Shown: positions 12,347 through 60,590, counted from the first letter of the stretch. The stretch: DNA of 64,000 nucleotides from Patescibacteria group bacterium (GCA_018062825.1 JAGORL010000003.1:72333-136332); one strand, 5' to 3'. The notes: a model not told the origin generated them from the letters alone. Program-made: numbers and translations.

Positions 12347-12386
12347 TTCTCCCCAGGTGACTGTGGAAAAACTGCAGATATGTGTA

Positions 12387-12598
12387 CAGTGGATAGCTCG
12401 GGGATAAAGCAGTGGATGAGTGGATGGATAAGTATGGGGATGAGCGTGGGACGAACAAGGGACAAAGGCATGGGCTATGAAACAACTTTGTTTCATACAC
12501 AGGCGACTCCCGCGGTCTTCCCAAACTTCTCCACATCAGGGACAATGGAATCGCTCAATAGACAATGCTTGAAGTGGAGTTATCCATGTCATCCACAG
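12387..12598. promoter_or_regulatory. oriC element 2: DnaA-box-like cluster in the dnaA-dnaN spacer
   Basis: Repeated GTGGATAG, GTGGATGA, TGGATGGATAAG, TTATCCATG and CATCCACAG motifs in a 290-bp non-coding spacer. Confidence 0.55.
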
Positions 12599-12640
12599 AC
12601 TCACAGCTACTATCAGTTTAGTAAATAAATTTATCTCTCT

Positions 12641-13774
12641 GTGAAGATCTCCTGTACGAAAGAGAACTTGCACCAAGGTCTCGCAATCGTGAGTCATATA
12701 AGTGGTAAGAATGCTAACTTACCAATACTCAACAATGTTCTGTTAAAAGCGGATGTATCGGGATTGAAGCTTACGGCAACAAATCTTGATATGACGGTGT
12801 CGTGTCATGTTCGTGGCAAGGTTGAACAGCCAGGCGAATATACGGTTCCAGCTCGACTTATTGCGGATTACGTCAGTTTGCTTCCAGACGAGCGAATCGA
12901 TATTGATTTACTCGATAGTGCGATTGCGATTTCTTGTAAGTCATCAAAGACCAAAATGCATGGTCTTCCGGCGGGTGAGTTTCCACTTATTCCTCAGGTT
13001 CAGGGTGGAATCACTTTTTCTGTACCGGTTAAGGCGCTTGATGCTGCGCTTTCACAGACGCTTTTTTCCGTGGCAACAAACGAGGCACGCCAGGTGCTTA
13101 CAGGTGTTTATCTTTATTTTAATGGTGATGCTCGTACGGTGACGGTGGCTGCGACTGATAGTTATCGTTTAGGGGAGAAGGTTATTCCGCTTATTGGTGA
13201 GCAGCTTGGTGAGCGACGAGTTGTTGTTCCGGCTCGCACGCTTGGGGAGCTGCGTCGAGTTTTTAGCGTGCTTCGTGATAGTGTCGAGACTCCGGAAAAT
13301 GTTGATATCGAACTTACGGATAATCAAGTTGCGTTTCGATACGGTAACGTTGAATTATCTTCTCGGACAATCGATGGAGTTTATCCCGACTATCGTCAAA
13401 TTATCCCCAAGTTAGCCACAACTGAGGTGATTGTCCCCAGAAATGAGTTCATGCAGGCGGTGAAGCGCACATCGCTTTTTTCAAAGCAAGGGCTTTTTGA
13501 TGTGAAGCTCGACATGAAGCCGGACAGTAATGAAATCGTACTTTCTGCTAACGATGCTGGTCGTGGAGAACATACCGTAGCTGTCTCTGGTGATATGAAG
13601 GGGTCAGCTAATGCGGTAACGCTTAACTATCGGTATTTACTTGATGGCGTTAGTGCCATGACTTCTGAGAGTATCGTGGTTAAGATCATTGATTCTATGA
13701 ATCCATGTGTCGTTGTTCCACATGAGCAGAAGGATGAGCAGTATCTTTACATCGTGATGCCGATTCGGCAGTAA
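12641..13774 (+). CDS. dnaN: DNA polymerase III beta sliding clamp
   Basis: 377-aa three-domain clamp with typical N-terminus (MKISCTKENL...) located after dnaA. Confidence 0.9.
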   Translation: MKISCTKENLHQGLAIVSHISGKNANLPILNNVLLKADVSGLKLTATNLDMTVSCHVRGKVEQPGEYTVPARLIADYVSLLPDERIDIDLLDSAIAISCKSSKTKMHGLPAGEFPLIPQVQGGITFSVPVKALDAALSQTLFSVATNEARQVLTGVYLYFNGDARTVTVAATDSYRLGEKVIPLIGEQLGERRVVVPARTLGELRRVFSVLRDSVETPENVDIELTDNQVAFRYGNVELSSRTIDGVYPDYRQIIPKLATTEVIVPRNEFMQAVKRTSLFSKQGLFDVKLDMKPDSNEIVLSANDAGRGEHTVAVSGDMKGSANAVTLNYRYLLDGVSAMTSESIVVKIIDSMNPCVVVPHEQKDEQYLYIVMPIRQ

Positions 13775-13900: not shown

Positions 13901-14476
13901 TTATTTTTGCACCGGGTACACCTCGATCGTTACGGTTTTAAGACCGAATTCACGAGCATCAGGAATTTCCTCCATCCAGATGTCGATACGCTTGGTATAG
14001 CGTGGGTTCATGCGGTCTTCAACGATAAAGATTTGATCGCCGAATACCTCAGGAATACGAACGCGGGTACCGAAGGGAAGGAAGTTTGCAGCAATAACAC
14101 CAAAGCGAGTCTGGGTATTACTTGCGGTTGTAAAAGGCGTATCGTCGGTCTGCCAAGGAACGGAGTTATAAGCCGTTGCCTGCACCGTTACTGTGTAGGA
14201 TGGACCGCGAAGATCGGCCTCGGGAAAGGTTCCATACGGAAGTGATTGGTTCTGCATGGCAGCCACTTCAAGCGCCGTAGCCTTGTTTCCTGACAAGGTA
14301 GCGGCAATGGTGGTGCCAGCTGAGGCAGGAATAGCGGCAAAACCGAAGAGCACAAGAAGGGCAGTGAAGGCGGCGGTTTCCACCGGCGCGCTGCGAAGTG
14401 CTTTTGCGATTTGACGTAATGAGAGTAGCTTCATAGGGGAAACAAAAACTTCCGGAAGAACCGGAAGAAACGTCAT
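13901..14476 (-). CDS. 3D-domain (YuiC/MltA-like) cell-wall-binding protein with signal peptide
   Basis: C-terminal region resembles the 3D domain (TATAYNSVPWQTDDTP...GTRVRIPEVFGD..IVEDR..IDIW). The start may be the internal Met at 14434. Confidence 0.55.
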   Translation of the reverse strand: MTFLPVLPEVFVSPMKLLSLRQIAKALRSAPVETAAFTALLVLFGFAAIPASAGTTIAATLSGNKATALEVAAMQNQSLPYGTFPEADLRGPSYTVTVQATAYNSVPWQTDDTPFTTASNTQTRFGVIAANFLPFGTRVRIPEVFGDQIFIVEDRMNPRYTKRIDIWMEEIPDAREFGLKTVTIEVYPVQK

Positions 14477-14636
14477 TATAGCTTATTTTAGCCACTTTGT
14501 CAAGGAAAAATGCCTATAATTTGGCTAATATTAGCTAAATAGCTTTAATAAGCTTCGCTAGCATTAGCCATGTTTTAGTATTTGGGTAGAAAATTGCTTT
14601 ACATCCCTGATTTTTTGGTACACTTTAGATGAATAT

Positions 14637-34501: not shown

Positions 34502-34527
34502 CAAAAAAGCCCTGACGGGCTTTTTTG
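34502..34527 (+). terminator. Intrinsic terminator of the solute-binding-protein gene
   Basis: AAAAAAGCCCTGACGGGCTTTTTTG. Confidence 0.65.
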
Positions 34528-34548
34528 CTTGGTGTATACTTTTTGTAT

Positions 34549-35067
34549 ATGCAGGGTCGACGCGCCTTTTTTTTCATCCCGATTGTTCTTGGCTTGTTCT
34601 TTAGTTTTGTACCGGTGCAAGTTCAAGCGCAGGGTGAGGTTGAATCAGAATTTCAGGATATTTTAAGTCAGGGAATTGTCTTTGCCGGCATCTGTGATAG
34701 CGCCACGGCTCCATGTGCGTGTCGGGATGTTGGCCAGTGTCAGTTGGATGATATTTTGCAGTTATTTGTGAATGTGAGCATTCTGATTCTTGGTATCAGC
34801 GGATCGATCGTGCTTCTCATGTTTGTATGGGGTGGCTTGCAGTGGATTTTATCGCAAGGCAATCCAAGCATGATTGAAAGTGGTAAAAATACCATGATTA
34901 ATGCTGCTATTGGTCTGGCGATTATTTTCGGCTCGTACGCTATGATCAATATTCTTATTTCTGTAGCGACCGGGCAAGGTCCGGCAGCTTCGCCAACGAT
35001 TGAGGGCACTATTGAAGGCGCGGTTCCTGGTAGTAATCCTGGTGCGGTAGTTAATACCGTTGAATAA
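34549..35067 (+). CDS. TrbC/VirB2-like pilin-family protein, paralog 1 of 6
   Basis: Signal peptide, Cys-containing variable region, then conserved TM1-(WGGLQWILSQGNP)-basic loop-TM2, shared with the next five genes. Confidence 0.6.
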   Translation: MQGRRAFFFIPIVLGLFFSFVPVQVQAQGEVESEFQDILSQGIVFAGICDSATAPCACRDVGQCQLDDILQLFVNVSILILGISGSIVLLMFVWGGLQWILSQGNPSMIESGKNTMINAAIGLAIIFGSYAMINILISVATGQGPAASPTIEGTIEGAVPGSNPGAVVNTVE

Positions 35068-35071
35068 ACAT

Positions 35072-35434
35072 ATGATGCTTTTAAAACGTATTTCACAAAT
35101 TGGCGTTTCCATTGGATTGTTTCTGTTCCCATTTTTTGTTCACGCTCAGGCGGTGACACTCATTAACCCACTTGGTGAAGGGAGCAATGATCCACGTTTA
35201 CTTATTGGACGTTTGATTGCGGCGGTTCTTTCGATTGTTGGTTCTTTGGCATTACTTATGTTCCTGTATGGTGGTCTTATTTGGATTACCTCAATGGGTG
35301 AGAGTGATAAGGTTATGAAGGGTAAGAAGATCCTTATTTGGGCTACCCTTGGCCTGGTTATTGTGGCGAGCGCCTACGTAATTGTGAATGCCATTATTCT
35401 TGGTTTGACGACGGGAAATGTAACCACCACTTAG
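35072..35434 (+). CDS. TrbC/VirB2-like pilin-family protein, paralog 2
   Basis: LLMFLYGGLIWITSMGESDKVMKGKKILIWATLGLVIVASAY; same architecture. Confidence 0.6.
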   Translation: MMLLKRISQIGVSIGLFLFPFFVHAQAVTLINPLGEGSNDPRLLIGRLIAAVLSIVGSLALLMFLYGGLIWITSMGESDKVMKGKKILIWATLGLVIVASAYVIVNAIILGLTTGNVTTT

Positions 35435-35505
35435 CAGCAATGAGGAATCATACACACCTACCGTCAGAGTCTAGGAATTCATGTATAATATAAAAAAATT
35501 AACCT

Positions 35506-35928
35506 ATGCCTATGATCAAGTCTTTGGTACGTCTCGGGATGAGTGTTGCGCTCGGTTTGGCACTTGCTCTTCCGTTCCTCCGTTTGGCTCCATCAGCAAT
35601 CTCGGTTGCTCATGCTCAGCCACTTGATTCGGGAGATTTCTTGTCAGATGACTTTTCTGACTCTACGGGCCTTGGTCAGAGTGACTTGCAGACGACAATT
35701 GGTAATTTGATCCGCGTTGCCCTTGGTTTTCTTGGTGTGATCGCGGTATGTATCATCTTGTTCGGTGGTTTTAAGTGGATGGTAGCAGGTGGTAATGATG
35801 AGAAGGTTGCCGAGGCTAAGCGCTTGCTCATTGCTGGCGTTATCGGTCTAGCCATTATTTTGTCCGCTTACGCAATTGCTTCGTTCCTACTCACTTCAAT
35901 CTTGAACGCCTCAACCGATTCGCTCTAG
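35506..35928 (+). CDS. TrbC/VirB2-like pilin-family protein, paralog 3
   Basis: ILFGGFKWMVAGGNDEKVAEAKRLLIAGVIGLAIILSAYAI. A TATAAT box lies upstream, so it may have its own promoter. Confidence 0.6.
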   Translation: MPMIKSLVRLGMSVALGLALALPFLRLAPSAISVAHAQPLDSGDFLSDDFSDSTGLGQSDLQTTIGNLIRVALGFLGVIAVCIILFGGFKWMVAGGNDEKVAEAKRLLIAGVIGLAIILSAYAIASFLLTSILNASTDSL

Positions 35929-35974
35929 GTTTTTTACTAACGGTTCTCCTGAACAAATGTTCAGGGGTTCCGCT

Positions 35975-36388
35975 ATGAAGAAACTCGCTGTTGCAGCACT
36001 ATTTTCGATCGGCTTTTTGCTGCCGGGTATTTCTTTGGCACAGCTTTCTCCAGGTGATAACTATGGTTTGAATGATACGGCGCAGGCCGGATACGGTGAG
36101 GGCGTGACCAGCAATAGCAATATCGGCACTTATCTTGGTACTTATATTATTCAGCCAGTACTTGGTTTGATGGGTATTTTGTTTCTTTTACTGACAGTGT
36201 ATGCGGGATTTTTGTGGATGACAGCCCAAGGTGATGATAGCAAGGTTAAGAAAGCAAAAGATATTTTGGTGGCGGCGGTTATTGGGGCGGTGATCATGGC
36301 TTCAGCTTATGTTCTGACTGCGGCAGTTTTTAACGCCTTGAGCACGGGTAGTATTACAGCTGCGGCAACTACTTCTACCCAAGAATAG
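35975..36388 (+). CDS. TrbC/VirB2-like pilin-family protein, paralog 4
   Basis: LLLTVYAGFLWMTAQGDDSKVKKAKDILVAAVIGAVIMASAYVL. Confidence 0.6.
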   Translation: MKKLAVAALFSIGFLLPGISLAQLSPGDNYGLNDTAQAGYGEGVTSNSNIGTYLGTYIIQPVLGLMGILFLLLTVYAGFLWMTAQGDDSKVKKAKDILVAAVIGAVIMASAYVLTAAVFNALSTGSITAAATTSTQE

Positions 36389-36391
36389 TGT

Positions 36392-36787
36392 ATGAAAATT
36401 TCCCGCTCACTTATTTTGACACTTATTTTATCAGTTGTTTTATTTATTCCAGCCGTTGTTTTTGGGCAGTTTACTGACGGACTACCTGACGTCGCTGACG
36501 CCACTCAAGGTGGTTATAATGCAAATTCTAGCTTAGCCGGTACGATTGGTTTACTTATTCAAGCATTTTTGGGAATTTTGGGAGTAATTTTTTTACTCCT
36601 TACTATTTATGCTGGCTTCCTTTGGATGACGGCAGCTGGTGATGATGGCAAGGTCAAGCAGGCCAAAGAAACGCTCGTGCGAGCAGTGATAGGTATGGTG
36701 ATCGTGCTCGCTGCCTACAGTATTACTTTCTTTGTGCTGGGTTATGTTGCAGCTGCCACGTCACAGACGATTATTGGAGGTGTTTAA
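36392..36787 (+). CDS. TrbC/VirB2-like pilin-family protein, paralog 5
   Basis: LLLTIYAGFLWMTAAGDDGKVKQAKETLVRAVIGMVIVLAAYSI. Confidence 0.6.
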   Translation: MKISRSLILTLILSVVLFIPAVVFGQFTDGLPDVADATQGGYNANSSLAGTIGLLIQAFLGILGVIFLLLTIYAGFLWMTAAGDDGKVKQAKETLVRAVIGMVIVLAAYSITFFVLGYVAAATSQTIIGGV

Positions 36788-36822
36788 TAATGTGATACAC
36801 TATATTCATAATTAAAAGCACT

Positions 36823-37215
36823 ATGATTTCTACTTTAAAGAAGGTGTTCGTAGCTGGTGCGCTTGCTCTTTTGCCGTTTGGCGTTGCCGCTGTTCCTAGC
36901 GTGCACGCACAAAGTGCACTTGAGTCTACTTTGGATGATGTTCAGGCAGAATCAGGATTAGGTGATCAGGATTTGACTACCACCCTTGGTATGCTTATCC
37001 AGGCCATGCTTGGACTCCTGGGTGTTATTTTCCTGGTACTTATCATCTACGCTGGTTTCCTTTGGATGACAGCGGGTGGTGATGAGGGCAAGGTTAGCAC
37101 GGCTAAGGACATCATGATCCGTTCGGTGGTGGGCTTGGTGATCTTGCTCTCAGCGTACGCGATCAGTAGCTTCGTTATTGATGCGCTTATCGAGGCGACC
37201 GGTTCCGGTTCCTAA
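36823..37215 (+). CDS. TrbC/VirB2-like pilin-family protein, paralog 6
   Basis: LVLIIYAGFLWMTAGGDEGKVSTAKDIMIRSVVGLVILLSAYAI. Confidence 0.6.
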   Translation: MISTLKKVFVAGALALLPFGVAAVPSVHAQSALESTLDDVQAESGLGDQDLTTTLGMLIQAMLGLLGVIFLVLIIYAGFLWMTAGGDEGKVSTAKDIMIRSVVGLVILLSAYAISSFVIDALIEATGSGS

Positions 37216-37222
37216 TCAATTT

Positions 37223-37254
37223 AAAAAGACCTGCGGAAACCGCGGGTCTTTTTT
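37223..37254 (+). terminator. Intrinsic terminator closing the pilin array
   Basis: AAAAAGACCTGCGGAAACCGCGGGTCTTTTTT. It is nearly identical to the terminator at 50054-50085. Confidence 0.7.
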
Positions 37255-37305
37255 GTTTTATAAATAGCGAACGCCCCAGTTCTCCGAAGAGAATGGGGCG
37301 TGAGA

Positions 37306-37911
37306 TCACCGAGTGGGACACCGGCCGAGATTGAACTCGGAGCGGCGGCTCCACAGAGTGCTGTCCTTCATGATGTGGGCGAGGCTGTTGCAGCTCCCGA
37401 CCTTGTTGCCGGCAACCGTGGCGGGGCCAGCAGCGGTAACGGCCATGGAGTTCAGTGCGAACACTGCGATCCCGTTGTATACGCTGATGGTCTTAGAGCT
37501 TTCCGGCACAGCGCCACCGTAGGTGGAACCGGACAGTTGGACGCGCGGCGTGGACAGGATGGTCCAGGCCGAGCGACCGCTCGGAATGCAACTCACGAAT
37601 TCGGTGGGTGACACCCAGAGGCCGATGGCGATCCGGGTTTCGATCCCGCTTTGTTCGGTGAGGGTCATGACGGCGCTCGGATTTCCCGATCCGTCGAGGT
37701 TCGGGCGCAGACACCACTGGGTGGTGTTGCGCACCTCGAGACACAGCGGGTTGCTGTCGCAGCCCGCGGGCGGCGAGAGCACCCACTCGTTCTGGACGGT
37801 GGGGATGAACAACACCTGCGCGTTGTTCGTGCTTCCGGCACCCGCCAGGGCCGCCGTGGGGGCGAAGAAGGCGAGGACGAGGGTGAACAACGCGATGAGG
37901 GTGCGGATCAT
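37306..37911 (-). CDS. Secreted Cys-containing protein A of the GC-rich island
   Basis: Signal peptide MIRTLIALFTLVLAFFAPTAALA, six Cys, GC3-rich codons, and a GGAGG Shine-Dalgarno before the ATG at 37911. The track ORF extends further to 37962. Confidence 0.6.
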   Translation of the reverse strand: MIRTLIALFTLVLAFFAPTAALAGAGSTNNAQVLFIPTVQNEWVLSPPAGCDSNPLCLEVRNTTQWCLRPNLDGSGNPSAVMTLTEQSGIETRIAIGLWVSPTEFVSCIPSGRSAWTILSTPRVQLSGSTYGGAVPESSKTISVYNGIAVFALNSMAVTAAGPATVAGNKVGSCNSLAHIMKDSTLWSRRSEFNLGRCPTR

Positions 37912-38006
37912 GGGAACCTCCGAACTTGAAAGGGCGAGTGAACTCTGAGGCCTCGGCATCATGATTGATGCTGGTGCCAGTGGAGTGCCCTTCTTGCGAA
38001 AGGCGA

Positions 38007-38090
38007 GTTAGCTAGTTGCGAACGTCCAGGCTCCGTAGAGCATGATGGCTGCGATGGCGAAGAAGAAGATTGTGACGATTGACGCGGTCA
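38007..38090 (-). CDS. 27-aa single-TM hydrophobic peptide (MTASIVTIFFFAIAAIMLYGAWTFATS)
   Basis: Hand-found ORF between island genes B and A on the same strand, preceded by an AAGGAA Shine-Dalgarno 5 nt upstream. Below the ORF-track size cutoff. Confidence 0.35.
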
Positions 38091-38193
38091 TGTGGTTCCT
38101 TAGGTGTGTAACCCGCAGACAGCTCATCTTGAGTGATGAACGGTCAGTAGGGTGCCCGTTCGGACTTCTTGGAAGAAGCCGAACGGGACGTAG

Positions 38194-38826
38194 TCACTCT
38201 GCGAGCGCGTCGTTCGCGGCGCGGAGCGAGACCACTTCGCTCTCGAGCTCGCGGACGCGGGCGTCCGTGGCGGAGGAGGTGGTGGTCGACGGCGCGGGCG
38301 AGGCGGGCGGCGGGGTGATCTGGCCCATCGAGGCGGACTGGAACGCGAGCGTTCCCATCTGGCCGAGACCCGGCATGGCCATGCCGGGCATGAACATGCC
38401 GCCGTTGCCAACCGAGATGGCGGCGTACGGGGCGGCCTGGCCGGTGGCGATGAGGTCGCCGTCGGCGTAGGTCGCGACGTTCGCTTCGATGCCCGCGAGG
38501 GAGACGTCACGGCGGGTGCCGGCGTCGACCTGGCGCGTCGCGGCGTCGATGCAGCCGACGCCTTGCCCCATCATCTCGATGGTGTTCTTGGCGCTGACGT
38601 GCTCGGCGTCGATCGTGACACCGCACGCGTTGACCGACACCGTGGGGCGTCCGGTCAGCTGCGTGTTGCTCGTGGCGTCGACTCGGCCGCTGGTCTGCGT
38701 GCGGGGTGCAGCGGGGCTGCGCTCGGCGACCGTTGCGGTCGGGCGGCTGGTCGCGTTCGGGTTGCCACCGGCGAGGGCCGGGGTGGCGAAGGCGACGAGG
38801 GCGGCGAGGGTGATGAAGCGGATCAT
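38194..38826 (-). CDS. Secreted low-complexity protein B of the GC-rich island
   Basis: Signal peptide MIRFITLAALVAFATPALAGG, a Pro/Ala/Thr-rich region, and a C-terminal coiled-coil-like tail. GAGG Shine-Dalgarno before the ATG at 38826. Confidence 0.55.
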   Translation of the reverse strand: MIRFITLAALVAFATPALAGGNPNATSRPTATVAERSPAAPRTQTSGRVDATSNTQLTGRPTVSVNACGVTIDAEHVSAKNTIEMMGQGVGCIDAATRQVDAGTRRDVSLAGIEANVATYADGDLIATGQAAPYAAISVGNGGMFMPGMAMPGLGQMGTLAFQSASMGQITPPPASPAPSTTTSSATDARVRELESEVVSLRAANDALAE

Positions 38827-39203
38827 GGATGACCTCACAGTGGAAGGAGCGGATACTTTACCTGGCAGGTATTAGCCAGTTCAAGTAACACATATTTATA
38901 GCACAAATTTTGGAAAAAGTCAAGGGGGTTAGTGAGATAATTTGGCTAATATTAGAAGAAAATGTGAAATCGGAGATCGGGGATCGGAGATGGATTGAAA
39001 TGCTTTTTTGTGATTGCTACACGGAGATTTCTCAACTCGGCATTCAGACTCGTTCGGGATCGCAAGACGATACATGTAATTGTTTGTTGAGACCTTCCCG
39101 AACGAAAGTTAGGGATCTTGGTTATGTGTTGGCTCTTGGCACGAAGGCTAGACCCCTCACTTGCGTTCGGGGAAGTTTTCAATACTTTTAATAATGGCAT
39201 TTT

Positions 39204-39221
39204 ATAGCTAATATTAGCTAT
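39204..39221. promoter_or_regulatory. 18-bp perfect palindrome ATAGCTAATATTAGCTAT (candidate operator) upstream of the island gene C promoter
   Basis: Perfect dyad. Related sites occur at 14521-14537 (TTGGCTAATATTAGCTA), 38941-38955 (half-site) and 6411-6430, all in divergent promoter regions. Confidence 0.5.
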
Positions 39222-39239
39222 TTTTGTTTACTTATCCCA

Positions 39240-39268
39240 TTGACAAAACGTCGATTTTATGCTACTAT
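39240..39268 (+). promoter_or_regulatory. Sigma70-type promoter TTGACA-17-TACTAT for island gene C
   Basis: Consensus -35 and near-consensus -10 with a 17-nt spacer, ~85 nt upstream of the ATG at 39354. The hexamers match the rRNA promoter at 57222-57250. Confidence 0.6.
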
Positions 39269-39353
39269 ATAGTGTTCGCAAGTGCGGCACATCGCCCATT
39301 TCGCGAAAGCAACTTCACAATCTGCAGTCACAAAGTGACAATCGGAGATCGCC

Positions 39354-41384
39354 ATGGCCACGGAGTCTACTGGAGACAATCGTCGTATCGTTGAGCAGAC
39401 GCTTGGCGAGATCGGAGAAGAGTGGCTCGAGACGATCGGTAAGGGGATCAATCCCATGCCGTTCCTCGCGACGCCCCACTTCTGGGGTCCGCCGGCGCGA
39501 GCAATCGCGAAGCGCGTGGCTAAGCATCCGAACACGATCCTGGGCGGCTTTTCTTTTCTGGGCGCTGTTGCGCAGGAAAAGTTGCCCTTCGGTCGGGATG
39601 TCAACCTCATCGTCGCCACGATCTTGCGCGGTATCCCGCGTCTCGCTGAGAATTCGTTGGCGGCACATGGTGTGACCGCTGACAACATCGAACAGAAGAT
39701 TGTCGAGTGGGCTGTGCAGCTCGCGAAGGAGACCCCCATGACGACGACCATCGAGTCGAAGCCGGAGGCTCCCGCGACGCCCTCGGCACCCGCGTTCGAG
39801 CTCACGCAGGAGCAGGGCGATGCCCTCGGGCTTCTGCACCGCATCCTTGAGGTTCGCCTCACGGATGCGTTCAACTTCCCGACCGAGCCGCGGCGGTACC
39901 AGGCGCTGTTGCGCCGGCTGTCGGCGAGCCCGATCGCGGTTCAGTTCCTCCCGAAGCTCAAGAAGAAGGAGATCGATGCCACCCTCGCGCACTTGCGCAC
40001 CCTCCAGACCTGGACGGCGCCCAACGTGAGCGAGGACCGGCCGACCGACGAGATGGCCGCGCAGGCGCGGATCGAGGTGGAGAAGGTGCTCTGGCGCTAC
40101 ATGCGCTTCGAGGCCGCCCTCTTCGCCCATGATCACCACCTGAACGGCGCCTATTCGATCGTCATCGGGGCGCTCGATCGTCTCGATGCGAACGTGACGG
40201 ACGAACAGCGTCGCCAGTTCCGGGAGTTTTGGGAGCGTCAGCTCCAGAACCTCTCGGAGGCCGGCATCCCCGGCATGACCCGTGACTTCGCCGAGAACTC
40301 GGCGCGAGTCATCCGGGAACAGGCGGAGCGGCTGTTCGGCTTCACGGTCGACGTCGGCCGACAGGTGTTCGAGTTTGCGGCCTGGGCGTTTGTGGGGGTC
40401 AATAGCCTCCTCATCGCCGGGATCGCGCTCTGCCTCATGGGTATCACCATGGTGGCCGAGCAGACGTTCGTGGCTCCGGCGCTTCTCGGACTCCTCTTCG
40501 TGATCCAGGTCGGAATCGCTGGGCGTCTCCTCACGAGCTCTCTGAGCACGGCGTGGAAGGCGGCCATCGTCATCGCGGCGGCAGCGCTCCTCGTGTTCCA
40601 GGTGTCGTTCGTGTCTGCGCTTCTTGCGCACCCGAGCGTTCTCCTCTTCCAGGTGGGGATCTGCCTCATGTGGATCTGGTACTTCTTCGTCGGACTGTTC
40701 GACGCGGTCGTCAACGGCTTTGCGGCCTTGACGCGCGGAGAGCGGTTCGGCCGGGATGCCGGAACGATCACGAGGGCGTGGATCGCGACGCGCAATGCCA
40801 TCATCGGCCGCACGGTCGAGGGGCAGGGCACGGCGGATGTGCCGGTACAGTTCCGGTGGTTCCGCAATTGGTCGCCGACCGTCGTCATCATCGTCTCCCT
40901 CGTGGGTGGTGTTGGTAGCGCGACGCAGGCGTTCTGGTTCGGTGCTTCGGGCGGCTTGTTCTCGGCGCTCATGTTGCTTGGCTCCGGCTGGCTCACGGGC
41001 GGTTCCGCGATCATGTACACCCGTGGCAATCGGCAGTTGACGGCAGCGGACAAGGATAACTTCTGGTCGCTCGACTTGCGGCAGAAGTACGCCAAGCGGG
41101 CGTTCCTCGTTCCCGGTGTCCTCGGCCAGGTGATGCTCGTCGTTGGCCTTGCGACCCTCTTCGTTCCTTGGTTCAAGGGCGAGGCTCTCGGTCAGCAGGT
41201 CACGGTGGCGCAGCACGTAGTGGTCGAGCCCGCAGCTAAGCAGGAAGCGACGCCCGTCATCTCGACGAGCGACGCGGCCTGCGAGAAGGTCGAGCGAATG
41301 CTCCAGGCGTCTCCGGACGTTTGCACGCTCTCGCCCGGCCTCAAGAGCTGCGCCACTGCCAAGCGGTGCGGACTGCTGAAGTAA
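39354..41384 (+). CDS. 676-aa polytopic membrane protein of the GC-rich island (soluble N-terminal ~330 aa plus ~8 TM helices)
   Basis: Strong GC3 codon bias (ctc/gcg/acg/atc/gag) unlike the flanks, GGAGA Shine-Dalgarno, and no family motif recognised. The antisense 690-aa ORF is a high-GC artefact. Confidence 0.65.
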   Translation: MATESTGDNRRIVEQTLGEIGEEWLETIGKGINPMPFLATPHFWGPPARAIAKRVAKHPNTILGGFSFLGAVAQEKLPFGRDVNLIVATILRGIPRLAENSLAAHGVTADNIEQKIVEWAVQLAKETPMTTTIESKPEAPATPSAPAFELTQEQGDALGLLHRILEVRLTDAFNFPTEPRRYQALLRRLSASPIAVQFLPKLKKKEIDATLAHLRTLQTWTAPNVSEDRPTDEMAAQARIEVEKVLWRYMRFEAALFAHDHHLNGAYSIVIGALDRLDANVTDEQRRQFREFWERQLQNLSEAGIPGMTRDFAENSARVIREQAERLFGFTVDVGRQVFEFAAWAFVGVNSLLIAGIALCLMGITMVAEQTFVAPALLGLLFVIQVGIAGRLLTSSLSTAWKAAIVIAAAALLVFQVSFVSALLAHPSVLLFQVGICLMWIWYFFVGLFDAVVNGFAALTRGERFGRDAGTITRAWIATRNAIIGRTVEGQGTADVPVQFRWFRNWSPTVVIIVSLVGGVGSATQAFWFGASGGLFSALMLLGSGWLTGGSAIMYTRGNRQLTAADKDNFWSLDLRQKYAKRAFLVPGVLGQVMLVVGLATLFVPWFKGEALGQQVTVAQHVVVEPAAKQEATPVISTSDAACEKVERMLQASPDVCTLSPGLKSCATAKRCGLLK

Positions 41385-41388
41385 CAAA

Positions 41389-41419
41389 TACCTCCTTGCC
41401 CACGCGGGGCGAGGAGGTA
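41389..41419 (+). terminator. Terminator-like hairpin after gene C
   Basis: TACCTCCTTGCCCACGCGGGGCGAGGAGGTA, GC-rich with a weak U-tract. Confidence 0.4.
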
Positions 41420-41506
41420 CTCATCCCCTGATTCGAGCACTCGCTCGGGTCGGGGGATTCTCTTTTTAGGGAGTAGGAAGTAGTTAGTAGAAAGTAGGCC
41501 AGGTCA

Positions 41507-42736
41507 TCACTTACGTTCGGGAAGGGGAGTTGATTGAGCGCGACTTAACATCATTGCAAAGAGTAGTGCGCCGATGATTGCGAGATCATTTTTCATTAAT
41601 GGGACGTCTACCAAGCCGTGAATACAAAGTGTGCACAAGGCAGCAAAAGCGGCTAAGGTTAGTGGATCATGATTGCTTGACCTGACGACTTTTGCGGTTG
41701 CGAGCATAAATGCGATGAGCGCGATGAGGCCAAGAGCACCGAGCTCGACCCAGACGTTTAGGATGATGTTGTGCGGGTATTGGAAGGTCTCAAATAGAGT
41801 TGCATCATGGTATGGAGTAATGGCGATTGGGAAGCCGTTTAAGCCAGCACCTTTGAGCGGGTGATCTTTGAGAAGTTCAAAGGTTTCTTGCCAGGTATGG
41901 AGGCGCGCTTGGCCTGACCAGTCACGGAGCAGGATTTTTTCTCGAGTGATTGGGATGAGTAAAGCAGTGACGCCAAGAAGACAGGTCGCTCCAATAAGGG
42001 CGATTTTTTGTTTGCTTGAAATGTTGGCGCATAGGAGGGAGCACAGCATGCCGATTGGAATGGCGATGAGTGCGGCTTCGGTTTGGGCAAGAAGAATTGC
42101 GAGTATGCCGATGGCGCTCAAGCTAAGAAGCGACTTTCGATGCTTTTTTGTGAGGATGGCAAGAGTAGTAGTTAGCGCGACGATGGGCGCTACAAAAAGG
42201 CCAAGTGCGTTTGGATACTCAAAGAAGCCGGTAGCACGACGCTCGATATCCCACGGGAGCGGAATTCCGAATCCGGTTGTCACTTGAAATAAGGCAAAGA
42301 CGGTCATGATGCCGACACTTGCCCCAAGAGCGCCAATGGCCTCTAGATAGTCATTTTTTGCTTTCCACGTGACGCGCATCATTATGAGTACGGCCATTGG
42401 TTCTAGGTAAAATGCTTTCCAAATGCCGAGTGCGGAAAAGATGTCGGGAGCGAGGGCGGCGCTGACTGAGGCTGCGGCAATAAGTAGTAGGAGAGGGGTG
42501 CGATATGGACCAAGAATCTGCAAGGGAAAGAGTTTCCAGGCTTGGTACTTGATCGTAAAAATGATGATGCTAGCAATAACGAGGAGCTCAAGCAGGGTTG
42601 TTGGGATTGGACCAATGTTAAAACGCAGGAGATATGTAGGTAGTAGCGCCATGAGTACCTTGAGGGCCAGTGGAAAATCACGCCAAGCAATAATGGCGTA
42701 TCCAATGACGATCAGTGCGGCCAAGATGAGCAACAT
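41507..42736 (-). CDS. O-antigen ligase/Wzy-like polytopic membrane protein
   Basis: ~10 TM helices and a periplasmic loop with YPHNIILNVWVELGALG, typical of the Wzy_C/O-antigen ligase family. Confidence 0.55.
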   Translation of the reverse strand: MLLILAALIVIGYAIIAWRDFPLALKVLMALLPTYLLRFNIGPIPTTLLELLVIASIIIFTIKYQAWKLFPLQILGPYRTPLLLLIAAASVSAALAPDIFSALGIWKAFYLEPMAVLIMMRVTWKAKNDYLEAIGALGASVGIMTVFALFQVTTGFGIPLPWDIERRATGFFEYPNALGLFVAPIVALTTTLAILTKKHRKSLLSLSAIGILAILLAQTEAALIAIPIGMLCSLLCANISSKQKIALIGATCLLGVTALLIPITREKILLRDWSGQARLHTWQETFELLKDHPLKGAGLNGFPIAITPYHDATLFETFQYPHNIILNVWVELGALGLIALIAFMLATAKVVRSSNHDPLTLAAFAALCTLCIHGLVDVPLMKNDLAIIGALLFAMMLSRAQSTPLPERK

Positions 42737-50085: not shown

Positions 50086-50305
50086 ATGCTGAGGTTGGCA
50101 CTGGCGCTGCTGCTCCGGCCATCTGTTTGCGAATCCAGGAGATTCCGGAGCGATTACCCGCTCGGTACTGGTCTTTAGCGATTGAGACTACGAACTGCTG
50201 AAGTTCCCATTCGATATCTTCCGGCATGTCGTACTTGCGCATGAGGGCTTGGAATTTATCAGTGAGTTCAGTGAACCAGCGACCGGTTGTTTTTTCATCG
50301 GACAT
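50084..50305 (-). CDS. Small hypothetical protein (73 aa) translationally coupled to the upstream LTD protein gene
   Basis: ATG overlaps the stop of the 800-aa gene by 11 nt; charged soluble product, no motif recognised. Confidence 0.45.
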   Translation of the reverse strand: MSDEKTTGRWFTELTDKFQALMRKYDMPEDIEWELQQFVVSIAKDQYRAGNRSGISWIRKQMAGAAAPVPTSA

Positions 50306-52634
50306 ATGTTTCTAGGTGAGAGGTAAGTGAAGTAAGTAATTCAGGTTTTGTTTTTAAGAGCCAGTAACTCATCAGTCCCAGCGCGACTGCGCCAAGCGAT
50401 ATTCCGGCTGCAGTAACAGGAACGGCGCTATTTGTTGGCGCTATTGTGCCTAGCGGTACGGACGTTGAGGGTACGGTTTTTGTTGCAGTATCCTGCTTCA
50501 AATCCTCAAACGATCGCGGATAGACTTCATAGGCGCCAGCCTTATTTTTTACGAGCACGCCTGTTACCGTTATAGCTCCAGTAGTCAGCTTGGCGCTTGT
50601 TACATCGCTTGCAGCTTTGACGTTTACTGCGATATCGCCGGTTTTTGTTTTCAAGGTAAAGCCGGTTTTTGTCAGCAGGCTAAGATCACCAGAGATTGTG
50701 ACAAGGCGTCCGCTGCCAATGGCGGCAAGATCAGCTACTGATGCGATCATGGGAGGCGTTTCCTCGTTTGTGCCATGTAAGACAATATCCTCTGCATTGG
50801 CTACTTTTATGCGGCTATTTGTGCTTTCATGATCTACGATCCCAGTTATAGTTACACTGCTTCCTACGGGAAGCTTTGACCAATCGGCGGCATGAAAATA
50901 GATTTCAAGTCCTTCAAGATACATGACTTGTTTTGCTATTTTCATCGGCTCCATAATCACTATTCCGGTTACTGAGACTTTGTCGCCGTGGTTCATTTTT
51001 GCTATTTCAGTTGTTGTCATTTGCGGCACGCTTTCCTCATTTTTCGTTGTCACTTTGGTGCTACTAGTAGAGCTTTTTACACCTTCTTCGATTACCGGTT
51101 GCGCAATGGCGATAATCCGGCGAATACCATTGGTGGCATCGGTGGTCGTCGCAAGCTTCGACTCTTCCAATTGAGGAGCACTGGTGTCAGAATCCACTTT
51201 AGTGGTGTGAGTGTTGTTGTCTTGCGCATAGATTAGCTCGTCAGTCGAGCTTATATTTTCAATAGATGGCTCGATAGTGGGTTCTGTATTCATCTGATTT
51301 GGAGATGGAGTTCCCGTGAGCCAGCCGTTTGTGGTGTAGTTGAGGCTTTGATCTTTTTCTGGAGCGACTATTTCATCCGTTCCGTAAGTAAGAGTGTCGA
51401 TAACGTCCGCGTACTCATTTCTTATTGTTAGTTCATCGCCGTCATTATTTAGTTTTCCTGCAGGGTTCTTGATAATGAGATAGCTATTTCCTGCAATATC
51501 TCCAGAGAGTACAGTTGCTTTTCCGGAAGCATCCGTAATTGTCCAACCGTCGAGCGTGAACGTTTCCTGCGTTGTGTTATAGATCTCTATCCACTCATCG
51601 CCAGTACTTGGCGCGCTTACGATTTCGTTGATACGGATTTCGCCAGCTTTTCCAGTTCTCTTTGGTGTTACATGTGGGCTCTCTTGCTCTTCTTGTTCGA
51701 TGTCTTCAGGAGTTTCATTCTCCGGTATTTCAACGATATGTGTGGTTGATTCGACCGTCTGATTCGTGTCAGTTTGGGTAATGATATTCTGAACACTATC
51801 TGTATCCACGGCTTCTGATTCGGTCGTTTCCACGTACGGTTCCTCCTCGATTATTTCTACGAATTCATACGAGCTTTCTTCGCTTATGTTAGTAGAATTT
51901 TCCGCATCATCTGCGGTATTTTCTTCGGTAGATATTTGTGTGTCGATTTGAGGTGGTGACACTTCGTTTTGTGACGTACTTTCTGTGTTCACCGTTTGTA
52001 TCTCCGGCGTTTGCATTTCCGGTGGTATATCGTTTTCTGATTGTTGGCTTTCTTCCTCATTTTCTGTCAGCGCTGTGAATATTACGTGGCCCGGCGTTCC
52101 GAATTGTGTTTCAACTGTTAGCCCAAGGGTTGTCACGCTATTTTGCCAAGCCTTGGTGACGATATCTCGTTCAATGCTTGCAATAGGTGATGTGTTGCCA
52201 AAGTCCGGAGTGCCCGTATCTTCATACGAATCGTGCACGAGACCGTGCGGATCCGTAAGAAATACGTGGAGACTAGAGTTAGCGAGCGATAGGGCGGTTG
52301 TAACAAGGTTCGGTTCGGTGCTTAGCGTTGATTTTTCGTCGCTGCTTTTGTAGTTTGCTATGAGTAACGTCTGCTGTGGTTGAAGGATAGTGGCGTCGGG
52401 TAAGGCGATTGCGTCGCCGCCGGTTGCAGCTCCTACGAGCAGCCAACCGGAAATATCCGTAGCGGTATCTTTCGTGTTTACGAGTTCGATCCATTCATCC
52501 GCTTGGCTTTTTTCCGACCCCGCCCAATTGATTTCCGAGATGAGAATCCCGGATGATCCTTGCGCGTTCGTGGGTACAAGAGGCACAGCGGACACGAGGA
52601 TTGCGATTCCTGCGAGCCCATACAGTAGCTTCAT
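50295..52634 (-). CDS. Large surface protein with two lamin-tail-domain (LTD) modules, an acidic low-complexity region and a C-terminal TM anchor
   Basis: Signal peptide MKLLYGLAGIAILVSAVP. LTD-like blocks ILISEINW..DEWIELVNT..DISGWLL and IRINEIVS..DEWIEIYNT..LDGWTITD. Track ORF extends to 52697. Confidence 0.65.
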   Translation of the reverse strand: MKLLYGLAGIAILVSAVPLVPTNAQGSSGILISEINWAGSEKSQADEWIELVNTKDTATDISGWLLVGAATGGDAIALPDATILQPQQTLLIANYKSSDEKSTLSTEPNLVTTALSLANSSLHVFLTDPHGLVHDSYEDTGTPDFGNTSPIASIERDIVTKAWQNSVTTLGLTVETQFGTPGHVIFTALTENEEESQQSENDIPPEMQTPEIQTVNTESTSQNEVSPPQIDTQISTEENTADDAENSTNISEESSYEFVEIIEEEPYVETTESEAVDTDSVQNIITQTDTNQTVESTTHIVEIPENETPEDIEQEEQESPHVTPKRTGKAGEIRINEIVSAPSTGDEWIEIYNTTQETFTLDGWTITDASGKATVLSGDIAGNSYLIIKNPAGKLNNDGDELTIRNEYADVIDTLTYGTDEIVAPEKDQSLNYTTNGWLTGTPSPNQMNTEPTIEPSIENISSTDELIYAQDNNTHTTKVDSDTSAPQLEESKLATTTDATNGIRRIIAIAQPVIEEGVKSSTSSTKVTTKNEESVPQMTTTEIAKMNHGDKVSVTGIVIMEPMKIAKQVMYLEGLEIYFHAADWSKLPVGSSVTITGIVDHESTNSRIKVANAEDIVLHGTNEETPPMIASVADLAAIGSGRLVTISGDLSLLTKTGFTLKTKTGDIAVNVKAASDVTSAKLTTGAITVTGVLVKNKAGAYEVYPRSFEDLKQDTATKTVPSTSVPLGTIAPTNSAVPVTAAGISLGAVALGLMSYWLLKTKPELLTSLTSHLETYVR

Positions 52635-52839
52635 AGAAAGACGGTGTCTTTCTTGACGATTGAAGTGAGGTGATCGATCAAAGTCCCGGCGCCACAAACG
52701 AAAAACCCCACCAGCCTTGCCGAAGCCTCGGAAGGAAGGTGGGGAGTTCGTTTGTTATTTCTATTAAGCGTTACCTAGCTGTGATCGACAAGATATAGAT
52801 GTGGACAACTGAGAAACTTTCAATGTTTTATTGTGCTTT

Positions 52840-52986: not shown

Positions 52987-54162
52987 ATGGACTACACTGT
53001 TTTTAGTTTATTTTTTACCATCTTTATTATGGTACAGGTAGTCACCACTACGGGGTATTTTCAACGGATTATGCAATCCGTTGGCGGCGTTTTACTCGGT
53101 ATAGTGTTGTTTTTTTCCTCTTTTGGAGTTTTGTTTTGGAATGAAGGCCGAGTTGATTTGTCTAAAATTGCTAAGAAAGCAGAAGTTGTTTCAGCTGGTC
53201 AGGTAGATGCCAATAAGAATGGCGTTTTTGCTTCTGTTTCTGGTGAGGTCACTACTGATAGCACCCTTGGTGATGGTTTGTATCTTGCTCCGGGCATGTA
53301 CTTAAGCATTTCCCGCATTGCCGAGATTTACGCTTGGGAAGAGGATTCAAAGTCTGAAACAACCACTAATACCGGTGGATCGGAAACCACAACTACAACG
53401 TATACCTACGAGAAGGCTTGGACTTCAGATCCTCAGGATTCCTCAGAGTTCCAGGAGGTTACTGGTCATGAGAATCAAGTTCAAACGCAGACTGAAACTT
53501 CACTACAGACTGAATCTATCAATGTTGGCGCCTGGGCTGTTGATGGACGTTCTGTTGATCTGCCTGGAGGTGAGCAGCTCACGCTTAACGAGGAGCGCGT
53601 TACACTTCCGGCTGGCGCCCAGATTTCCGGCGGTTACGTTTACTTAAATGGTGCAGATCCTGCGCTTCCTGACATTGGTGATGAGCGAGTGAAATATACG
53701 GCGCTTATGCCGGGTTTTGATGGCACAATCTTTGGTGAGGTTGATGGGGCAAATGGTCAGATTGCACGTTATACGGATAAGAACGGCAATGCTTTTTACC
53801 GTATCTTTGAAGGTGGTCGTGATGAGGCGCTTGCTACCATGCATGGCGAGTATGTTATGGCCTTGTGGATCTTCCGCTTTGTTGGTTTCTTGATGATGTG
53901 GATCGGCTTGTCCATGGTTTTTGGTCCAATATCAGCTCTTCTTGATATCTTGCCAATTTTTGGTCGGTTATCACGTACGCTTATTGGCGGTGTTACTTTC
54001 TTGATTGCGGGGCTCTTGTCTATCGTGACGATCCTCGTATCCATGATCTTGCATTCACTTGTTGCACTTATCATCGCTGTACTTCTTATAATCGGTGGCA
54101 TTATCGGTGGTTTATACTGGTATAAGAACAATAAAATGCAGCCAGTTGTTACTAGCGCTTAG
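52987..54162 (+). CDS. Membrane protein (N-terminal TM, ~270-aa exposed region, C-terminal 3-4 TM; possibly TMEM43/DUF1625-like)
   Basis: Topology from hydrophobicity only; family assignment is weak. Confidence 0.35.
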   Translation: MDYTVFSLFFTIFIMVQVVTTTGYFQRIMQSVGGVLLGIVLFFSSFGVLFWNEGRVDLSKIAKKAEVVSAGQVDANKNGVFASVSGEVTTDSTLGDGLYLAPGMYLSISRIAEIYAWEEDSKSETTTNTGGSETTTTTYTYEKAWTSDPQDSSEFQEVTGHENQVQTQTETSLQTESINVGAWAVDGRSVDLPGGEQLTLNEERVTLPAGAQISGGYVYLNGADPALPDIGDERVKYTALMPGFDGTIFGEVDGANGQIARYTDKNGNAFYRIFEGGRDEALATMHGEYVMALWIFRFVGFLMMWIGLSMVFGPISALLDILPIFGRLSRTLIGGVTFLIAGLLSIVTILVSMILHSLVALIIAVLLIIGGIIGGLYWYKNNKMQPVVTSA

Positions 54163-57250: not shown

Positions 57251-57408
57251 TCCGCCGCACTGTTCGTGAACAAAAGTTCACTTCAGAAGAGCTTTTTGGA
57301 CGAAAGTCCAGCGCGCCCTTCTGAACGTTTACAACTAAATATTCTACGAAGAAAAAGCAAACGCACTGATATCATGACCAAAAGGTCATGCGTACTCAGT
57401 GAATGGAG

Positions 57409-60418
<3,010 letters not shown>

Positions 60419-60480
60419 TCCATTCACTGAGTGCGTTAAATCGCACGCGTTTGCTAAACGAATAAAAAAACATTTCATTG

Positions 60481-60590
60481 TCTTGGTGGCATTTCCAGCG
60501 GGGACACACCCGTTCCCTTCCCGAACACGGAAGTTAAGCCCGTTTGGGCCGATGGTAGCCAAGTGTGGCGAGAGTAGGTGGCCGCCAGGA
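60481..60590 (+). rRNA. rrf: 5S ribosomal RNA
   Basis: TCTTGGTGGC..CCGAACACGGAAGTTAAGCCCG..GATGGTAGC..GAGAGTAGGTGGCCGCCAGGA; ends pair. Confidence 0.9.

Follow-up and report, generated by a model that had tools for sequence, protein, structure and literature searches.

Arrays of VirB2-like pilin genes have been described in Patescibacteria, and these are among the described systems closest to the locus studied here. That work (Microb Genom 2025, PMC12102498) reports 441 arrays of 2-11 genes, often near the replication origin. The same paper places type IV secretion genes near the origin in some Patescibacteria, cites a VirB2-like array as essential in a cultivated Saccharibacterium and cites duplicated virB2 pilin genes in Bartonella and Anaplasma. 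Here we describe a cassette of three genes, A, B and C, unusually rich in guanine and cytosine (GC-rich), which directly follows such an array in a 64,000-nucleotide stretch of DNA from a Patescibacteria group bacterium (GCA_018062825.1, JAGORL010000003.1:72333-136332; hereafter the window). The six tandem, divergent pilins of the window lie about 26 kb from dnaA and fit the described arrays, whilst A, B and C are themselves not pilins and match no Pfam, NCBIfam, PHROG or PADLOC model. Neither the term 'GC content' nor a GC-rich neighbouring cassette occurs in the keyword-searched passages of PMC12102498. In the literature, 'pilin array' combined with Saccharibacteria led only to that paper and to a single review on type IV secretion systems.

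Other known systems resemble the cassette in part. Like genomic islands, it combines a sharp deviation in G+C and codon usage with orphan genes. Genomic islands differ from it, however, in that the cassette is fixed at one syntenic site across deeply diverged lineages and lacks mobility genes, attachment repeats, an adjoining tRNA, donor homologues and any drift of G+C towards that of its host. With GC-biased gene conversion and selection for G+C in bacteria it shares a G+C at third codon positions (GC3) that is above the genome level and stable in time, in genes that possibly undergo frequent recombination. To our knowledge, these are the sole type of described process that raises G+C locally without import. 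The effects attributed to them by Lassalle et al. in 2015 and Hildebrand et al. in 2010 reportedly amount to a few percent across many genes, whereas the shift in the cassette is about +0.4 in GC3, is limited to three adjacent genes and ends at gene boundaries.

A further parallel is offered by the VirB5/VirB6-type accessory components of type IV secretion pili, which are small secreted and polytopic membrane proteins encoded near pilin genes. The cassette likewise encodes small secreted proteins and a polytopic membrane protein beside pilins, and the position directly downstream of the array recurs in every lineage with the cassette. By contrast, neither A, B and C nor a profile of the C family showed similarity to VirB5, VirB6/TrbL or PrgH in Pfam, NCBIfam or the Protein Data Bank (PDB). 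A is predicted, at low confidence, to be beta-rich rather than helical, and no virB4 was found in the window.

We consider it probable that the cassette is native to one clade of Patescibacteria, where it has been vertically retained in association with the six-gene VirB2-like array and its coding G+C has been maintained. Its high G+C is a locus-specific steady state held in every lineage, not the residue of a donor. Besides A, B and C, the cassette contains a possible small open reading frame (ORF), and its features in window coordinates are as follows (aa, amino acids).

37272-37300, minus strand: terminator-like hairpin after A (CGCCCCA...TGGGGCG), read from the sequence and identical in L001, a relative from another sample
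37306-37911, minus strand: gene A, 201 aa, KBC55_03580, GC3 0.84, an ORF with a GGAGG Shine-Dalgarno sequence before its start
38008-38091, minus strand: possible small hydrophobic ORF, 27 aa, unannotated, with an AAGGA Shine-Dalgarno sequence
38194-38826, minus strand: gene B, 210 aa, KBC55_03585, GC3 0.92
39354-41384, plus strand: gene C, 676 aa, KBC55_03590, GC3 0.83
41423-41468, plus strand: intrinsic terminator of C, a 16-bp stem followed by a T-run, at the right edge of the GC-rich stretch

The coordinates of A, B and C, first proposed in a preliminary description made from the window alone, agree with the ORFs and with the NCBI gene calls on the 197.6-kb contig. For the start of A, a longer upstream reading frame is broken by indels in L001.

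The window as a whole has a G+C of 48.6%. Between 37262 and 41466 this rises to 0.619, and to 0.658 over the three coding sequences together. Outside this stretch, 119 intervals of 500 bp had a G+C of 0.476 ± 0.030 with a maximum of 0.556, whereas six of the seven intervals inside it reached 0.61-0.66, which is 4.4-6.0 standard deviations over the outside mean. The rise is strongest at third codon positions: G+C at first, second and third positions (GC1/GC2/GC3) is 0.54/0.56/0.84 in A, 0.64/0.60/0.92 in B and 0.64/0.46/0.83 in C, against a GC3 of 0.40-0.55 in 13 native genes of the window, the adjacent pilin, wzy and flippase genes among them. It is also restricted to the coding sequences of the three genes: in the 514-bp spacer that separates B from C, G+C is just 41%. 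Codon usage in the cassette is of the CTC/GCG/GCC type. GC1 and GC2 are raised as well, as is the combined share of Gly, Ala, Arg and Pro, most strongly in B (40% versus 20-29% elsewhere), indicating that the bias extends to the amino-acid level in weakly constrained proteins. The sharp rise in G+C and the third-position bias missing from neighbouring genes, both claimed in the preliminary description, thus hold up, and nowhere else in the 64-kb window is the composition comparable.

Long shadow ORFs open on both strands of the GC-rich stretch, again as first described, and one of them (39315-41387, 690 aa) is antisense to all of C. This frame stays open because C contains zero TTA, CTA or TCA codons and has A at only 4% of its third positions. 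We rejected it as a gene, since G+C is distributed wrongly over its codon positions (GC1 0.82) and the frame is broken in L005, a more diverged relative.

The same composition recurs at the same site in relatives. In L001, the stretch comprising the sixth pilin, A, the small ORF and B is 84.5% identical to the window at the nucleotide level, with the same pilin beside the genes. In L005 the gene order is GalU, solute-binding protein, six pilins, A5, B5, C5 and wzy, with amino-acid identities to the window of 80% for GalU, 55% for the solute-binding protein, 50-72% for the pilins and 47% for wzy. A5, B5 and C5 have GC3 values of 0.83, 0.92 and 0.86 against a background of 0.49-0.62, and so lie near the window values gene for gene. 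The flanking orthologues of the window and L005 are saturated at synonymous sites (proportion of synonymous differences, pS, 0.74-0.83). A donor composition would be erased over such a distance, indicating that the GC3 of the cassette is a locus-specific equilibrium.

When JGI metagenomes were scanned with the third pilin, which is conserved, 80 loci were obtained, of which 38 were fetched with at least 2 kb of downstream sequence, as is present in the window. A GC-rich island follows the array in 16 of these 39 sequences (window counted), beginning within a few hundred bases of the last pilin, and five truncated loci show the onset of the rise. Profile searches found members of the A, B or C families in L006 as well as in L001, L005, L008, L012, L014/L049, L017, L020 and L024, all directly after the array. 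The patchiness expected of a horizontally acquired island, with an empty site in close relatives, is not seen: the same site is occupied throughout the latter set. Very divergent A proteins occupy the same position in nine other loci; the B family has about nine members, all at that position (alignment A7), and the C family an eight-member alignment (A5). In L012 the entire unit is inverted and still GC-rich.

Across eight lineages, cassette GC3 was 0.71-0.94 versus 0.40-0.58 in the flanks. The third-position spectrum is near constant across lineages (C 0.41-0.54, G 0.34-0.39, T 0.04-0.15, A 0.04-0.10), and in the lineages with A, B or C homologues these genes are without exception GC-rich, against backgrounds of 46-56% G+C. 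All six-pilin relatives with enough downstream sequence carry an island, except the more distant L052 and L083, and more distant arrays (7-15 genes, in low-GC genomes) mostly lack one. The high-GC Patescibacteria loci sampled (L034, L036 and L050) contain no homologues of A, B or C. Within the clade, the correlation of island GC3 with background GC3 was not significant (r = 0.28, p = 0.21); in the lower-GC genomes L060, L067 and L031 the islands are also lower in GC.

GC-rich orphan genes also follow the arrays of L026, L035, L082, L031, L040, L060 and L067. A similar divergent layout of secreted and membrane proteins was observed in these islands (among them L026 4561-8004, L035 10841-14571, L082 11300-15034, L060 11101-15200 and L067 11401-12900). 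Neither homology to A, B or C nor a Pfam match was detectable for the ORFs of the orphan islands, and these islands may represent one and the same module after divergence past recognition, or genes recruited independently to the position. The nonhomologous orphans in L026, L035, L082 and L031 suggest that it is the position, and not one imported cassette, that is special.

The regulatory sequences of the cassette lie in the low-GC spacer between B and C and comprise two divergent promoters (nt, nucleotides).

38895-38956, minus strand: promoter of B, the small ORF and A with its palindrome (GCTAATATTAGa at 38945-38956, 21 nt, TTGACT at 38918-38923, 17 nt ending in TGC, TATAAA at 38895-38900)
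39207-39268, plus strand: promoter of C with its palindrome (GCTAATATTAGC at 39207-39218, 21 nt, TTGACA at 39240-39245, 17 nt, TG-TACTAT)

Both promoters follow one design, namely GCTAATATTAG(C/a), 21 nt, TTGAC(A/T), a 17-nt spacer with TGn, and TACTAT or TATAAA; that of B was read from the sequence, and that of C gave 10 of 12 matches plus the TG in a promoter scan. The palindrome GCTAATATTAGC occurs three times in the window (14524-14535, 38945-38956 and 39207-39218) against 0.14 copies expected, and at all three promoters it lies 20-21 nt upstream of a TTGAC(A/T) -35 box. The third copy is equally spaced from a consensus promoter (TTGACA-17-TATAAT) upstream of an ORF at 13901-14476 on the minus strand. 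The same layout of promoter and palindrome is found upstream of B5 (palindrome at L005 8851-8862), and in the islands of L012, L035, L026, L049 and L020 the low-GC dip contains the C promoter segment again. A promoter and operator common to B, C, B5 and ORF 13901-14476 indicate that the cassette is wired into native regulation. The palindrome is probably the operator of a dimeric transcription factor with a small regulon that includes ORF 13901-14476. Both divergent promoters are of sigma-70 type; the leftward one would drive B, the small ORF and A, and the rightward one C.

The B-C spacer also contains a 37-nt 'inverted repeat' (arms 38919-38955 and 39208-39244), which arises because the two divergent promoters have an identical design, palindrome included. 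An origin as a miniature inverted-repeat transposable element was rejected, the arms being the divergent promoters and operator with no further copy in the window. For ORF 13901-14476, an assignment to a cell-wall hydrolase domain was unconfirmed by Pfam and was dropped. In L005, an IS1595-family transposase (DDE_Tnp_IS1595 plus zinc ribbon; L005 8965-9804) with a host-like G+C of 0.47 sits in the low-GC B-C spacer, where it parts the C promoter from the palindrome. The L005 contig (CAZXUX010000002.1) is filed as 'uncultured Gammaproteobacteria bacterium', a label that looks wrong given its gene-for-gene synteny with the Patescibacteria window.

The coding sequences of the cassette evolve fast and its spacers slowly. 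Against L001, nonsynonymous divergence relative to synonymous divergence (dN/dS) was 0.25 for A (dS 0.72) and 0.38 for B (dS 0.28), values that mark both as coding sequences under purifying selection, albeit loosely constrained. The neighbouring pilin is identical to that of L001 at 57 of 58 amino acids, with 15 of 16 nucleotide differences at third positions. The noncoding spacers are 95-100% conserved in the same comparison (91/96, 93/96 and, between A and the pilin, 90/90 identical positions), whereas synonymous sites differ by 23-46%. Against L005, the dN of B and C was 0.86-0.93 versus 0.18-0.49 in the flanks, or 2-5 times the flank values. Two of the spacers are transcribed, that between B and the small ORF (38092-38193) and that between the small ORF and A (37912-38007). 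Both are 95-97% identical to L001 and the first contains a strong hairpin (CCCGTTCGG...CCGAACGGG). They may act as conserved RNA elements in regulation or processing. Rfam returned no RNA family in the GC-rich island.

The anatomy of the proteins matches the signal peptides first noted on A and B and the polytopic membrane protein first noted in C. A carries a Sec-type signal peptide (MIRTLIALFTLVLAFFAPTAALA, followed by G) and six cysteines. B also has a Sec signal peptide, which like that of A ends in ALA; the protein is rich in Ala, Thr, Pro and Gly and mostly of low complexity, and it has a core with two cysteines, a stretch rich in Met and Gly and an amphipathic helix at the C-terminus. 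C begins with a soluble helical domain of some 335 aa, which is followed by about seven transmembrane helices and a C-terminal tail of about 70 aa, which has four cysteines and the family motif C...C.L.P..PC.C. Two Arg/Lys-rich loops of C lie on the same side as the N-terminus, and the C-terminal cysteine tail would thus be extracellular, with the helical domain in the cytoplasm. As for the tiny transmembrane peptide claimed between A and B, the ORF at 38008-38091 and its one transmembrane-like segment stand, but its coding status does not follow with equal force. The ORF was seen just in this lineage and L001, with 79% identity over a 39-aa version and a dN/dS of 0.8 over 39 codons, and is possibly a coding gene.

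None of the proteins belongs to a recognised family, as the preliminary description had stated. Scans of A, B, C and the small ORF against Pfam, NCBIfam, PHROGs and PADLOC gave zero matches. Nothing was found either when the eight members of the C family were all scanned against Pfam, or in a profile search of the PDB. In a search of 5.8 billion protein clusters, B and C matched only themselves and A matched one relative at 76% (P0004/L001). A full HMMER scan of 1.84 billion representative proteins with C returned two distant matches only, P0005 (E = 8e-6) and P0006 (E = 3e-5). Both are similar to C in length, collinear with it and share LALFWRILExRLxD...P..P, FAPFE and the C-terminal cysteine motif, and P0006 is encoded at L005, the same locus type as C. 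No homologue of A, B or C in a high-GC organism was found among the 5.8 billion clusters or, for C, among the 1.84 billion representatives. Searches of viral contigs, JGI metagenomes and one genome scan with C-family alignments found nothing, which is due in part to the use of the most divergent member as the reference for confirmation.

Location and anatomy suggest that A, B and C most likely act with the pilin array at the cell surface, and the surface role proposed in the preliminary description is still the most plausible guess. The three proteins would make up an envelope or surface module acting together with the array in contact with other cells, where they could be minor components, tip components or a platform in the membrane, for example. 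The very fast evolution of the proteins fits a role in contact with other cells, and the rapid diversification of the cassette is in this respect comparable to the variable surface genes that adjoin duplicated virB2 in Bartonella and Anaplasma. The three proteins are concrete, testable candidates for the surface machinery with which ultrasmall bacteria contact other cells.

As the cause of the enrichment we would guess at a fixation bias in favour of GC, to which coding sequence under weak constraint is exposed and which could stem from recombination-associated biased gene conversion or from selection at the level of synonymous sites or mRNA. Against such a bias the AT-rich regulatory spacers, being strongly conserved, would hold out. 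The sharp boundary between coding sequence and spacer favours selection on coding sequence or mRNA, whilst the strong constraint on the spacers leaves room for a regional bias. Deviant G+C is routinely read as horizontal transfer, and the cassette is a counter-example that calls for local fixation bias or selection on coding G+C. Its GC3 contrast also offers a simple way to search other lineages computationally for equivalent cassettes that are unrelated in sequence.

Several points weigh against a native, vertically retained surface module kept GC-rich by fixation bias. The function suggested for A, B and C is drawn entirely from location and anatomy, and AlphaFold2 on shallow alignments gave models too poor for use (an all-helical C with a mean model confidence, pLDDT, of 41, and A with 35). 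Neither VirB4 nor any other type IV secretion gene is present among the ORFs scanned in the 64-kb window. Pairwise identities of pilins, B and C place all lineages at about equal distances and so do not separate vertical descent from replacement. The sharp drop in spacer G+C is explained no worse by selection on coding sequence or mRNA than by a mutational process of regional extent, and the biased-gene-conversion effects of Lassalle et al. in 2015 are said to be far below a shift of +0.4 in GC3. An ancient foreign origin of the cassette is possible.

A bolder account, which we regard as possible but tentative, takes the cassette to be a hyper-evolving surface module, attached in a clade of Patescibacteria to the VirB2-like array, in which a locus-specific GC-driving process aimed at just these genes keeps GC3 at about 85-90% over deep time. 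Such a process could be a recombination or conversion hot spot, targeted mutagenesis or strong mRNA selection. We know of no precedent in bacteria for a strongly localised, heritable compositional hot spot of this kind. If real, it would be a marker for genes that mediate contact with other cells.

Ancient acquisition is rather unlikely. Here the ancestor of the clade would have obtained the cassette from a high-GC source, with vertical inheritance thereafter and G+C upheld by selection or biased fixation. The composition is unlike that of every other gene in the window, and the scarcity of islands after the more distant arrays of low-GC genomes marks a possible point of origin. No donor family is detectable, however, and the nonhomologous GC-rich orphans that follow the arrays of L026, L035, L082 and L031 speak against one imported cassette. 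The scenario also needs the same maintenance process, and so adds an event without explaining the main oddity.

Repeated site-specific replacement seems to us improbable. Under this account Patescibacteria would exchange a circulating GC-rich cassette by recombination in its conserved flanks, pilin and wzy, so that one divergent 'allele' takes the place of another. It would account for cassette proteins far more divergent than their flanks, for the inverted unit in L012 and for the IS1595-family transposase within the L005 cassette. Against it, no native high-GC reservoir was found, with the sampled L034, L036 and L050 lacking A, B and C homologues, and in the close pair formed by the window and L001 cassette and flank diverge together whilst the spacers are conserved. 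Cassette swapping, like an ancient origin, would still require a maintenance process.

The preliminary description explained the stretch by horizontal acquisition from a high-GC donor, for instance an actinobacterial host, recent enough to leave the donor signature unworn. This is now very improbable, being contradicted wherever it could be tested. It draws on the strong contrast in GC3 and codon usage and on the orphan status of the genes. It conflicts with the presence of the cassette at the same site and with the same GC3 in relatives whose flanks are synonymously saturated, and with the absence of any homologue beyond the pilin-array locus type in the protein searches described above. Traces of mobility are also lacking: no integrase, recombinase, relaxase or reverse transcriptase was found among the scanned ORFs of the 64-kb window, no direct repeats of credible length flank the GC-rich stretch, and no tRNA adjoins it (the nearest are 5.4 kb and 4.6 kb off). 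The intergenic region is native in composition and has a conserved native promoter and operator. Nor do any data point to a Saccharibacterium or an actinobacterial host, as host-to-symbiont transfer from Actinobacteria would imply.

Codon usage tuned to another cell is scarcely credible. DNA delivered to and expressed in a host has a precedent in the T-DNA of Agrobacterium, and by analogy the cassette would be delivered to and expressed in a high-GC host. This idea has in its favour only that pilin genes like those of type IV secretion lie nearby and that the codon usage looks foreign. Neither a relaxase nor a transfer origin nor border repeats were found, the promoters and operator of the cassette are common to an ordinary chromosomal gene, and A and B bear ordinary Sec signal peptides.

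An assembly chimera, or contaminating high-GC DNA joined into the contig, is effectively excluded in spite of the abrupt change in composition and of one public contig (L003) that does end in an unrelated high-GC fragment, because independent per-run assemblies, and likewise diverged relatives sampled elsewhere, run across both junctions, which the preliminary description had flagged for such a check. By exact look-up, the left junction between pilin array and A was found in three further assemblies (the Logan per-run assemblies L002 and L004 and the NCBI metagenome L003) and the right junction between C and wzy in two independent contigs (L086/L088 and L087); near-identical contigs differ by a single SNP. 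In L003 (GCA_020054605.1, JAHZTR010121538.1) the final 180 bases (3756-3937) are unlike the window and the rest is 99.97% identical. This nonmatching end has a G+C of 70% and encodes a fragment with a P-loop motif (...GPPGAGKSM...), and it is probably a chimeric contig end of that public assembly.

The surroundings of the cassette are ordinary core chromosome. Its immediate neighbours are the following.

34525-37215, plus strand: six VirB2-like pilin genes (T4SS_pilin, PF18895); Pfam matches the first and last gene, and all six match the pilin profile
37223-37253, plus strand: intrinsic terminator belonging to the pilin array, with a stem of 14 bp and then a T-run
41507-42736, minus strand: Wzy_C (O-antigen ligase-like) gene by Pfam, the right-hand neighbour, with a 47% identical orthologue adjoining C5 in L005

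The array lies directly upstream of the cassette in the window, and a six-gene array precedes the cassette also in L005, L008, L017, L020 and others. Before the cassette are dnaA and dnaN (10955-13774), a class A penicillin-binding protein, an ABC transporter, glutamate dehydrogenase, GalU, the solute-binding protein and the six pilins; after it come Wzy_C, a polysaccharide flippase, SpoIID, RuvB and 23S and 5S rRNA. Since dnaA and dnaN lie about 21 kb upstream of the array, both array and cassette are near the replication origin.

Two further observations concern the right-hand part of the window. The 23S and 5S rRNA genes lie at 57404-60590 with no 16S gene in the approximately 57 kb upstream within the window, and the rRNA operon thus appears unlinked. 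An 800-aa protein with two Lamin Tail Domain (LTD) matches (50295-52697) and a TMEM43-family protein (52987-54162) flank a tRNA-Leu, which is an unusual pairing.

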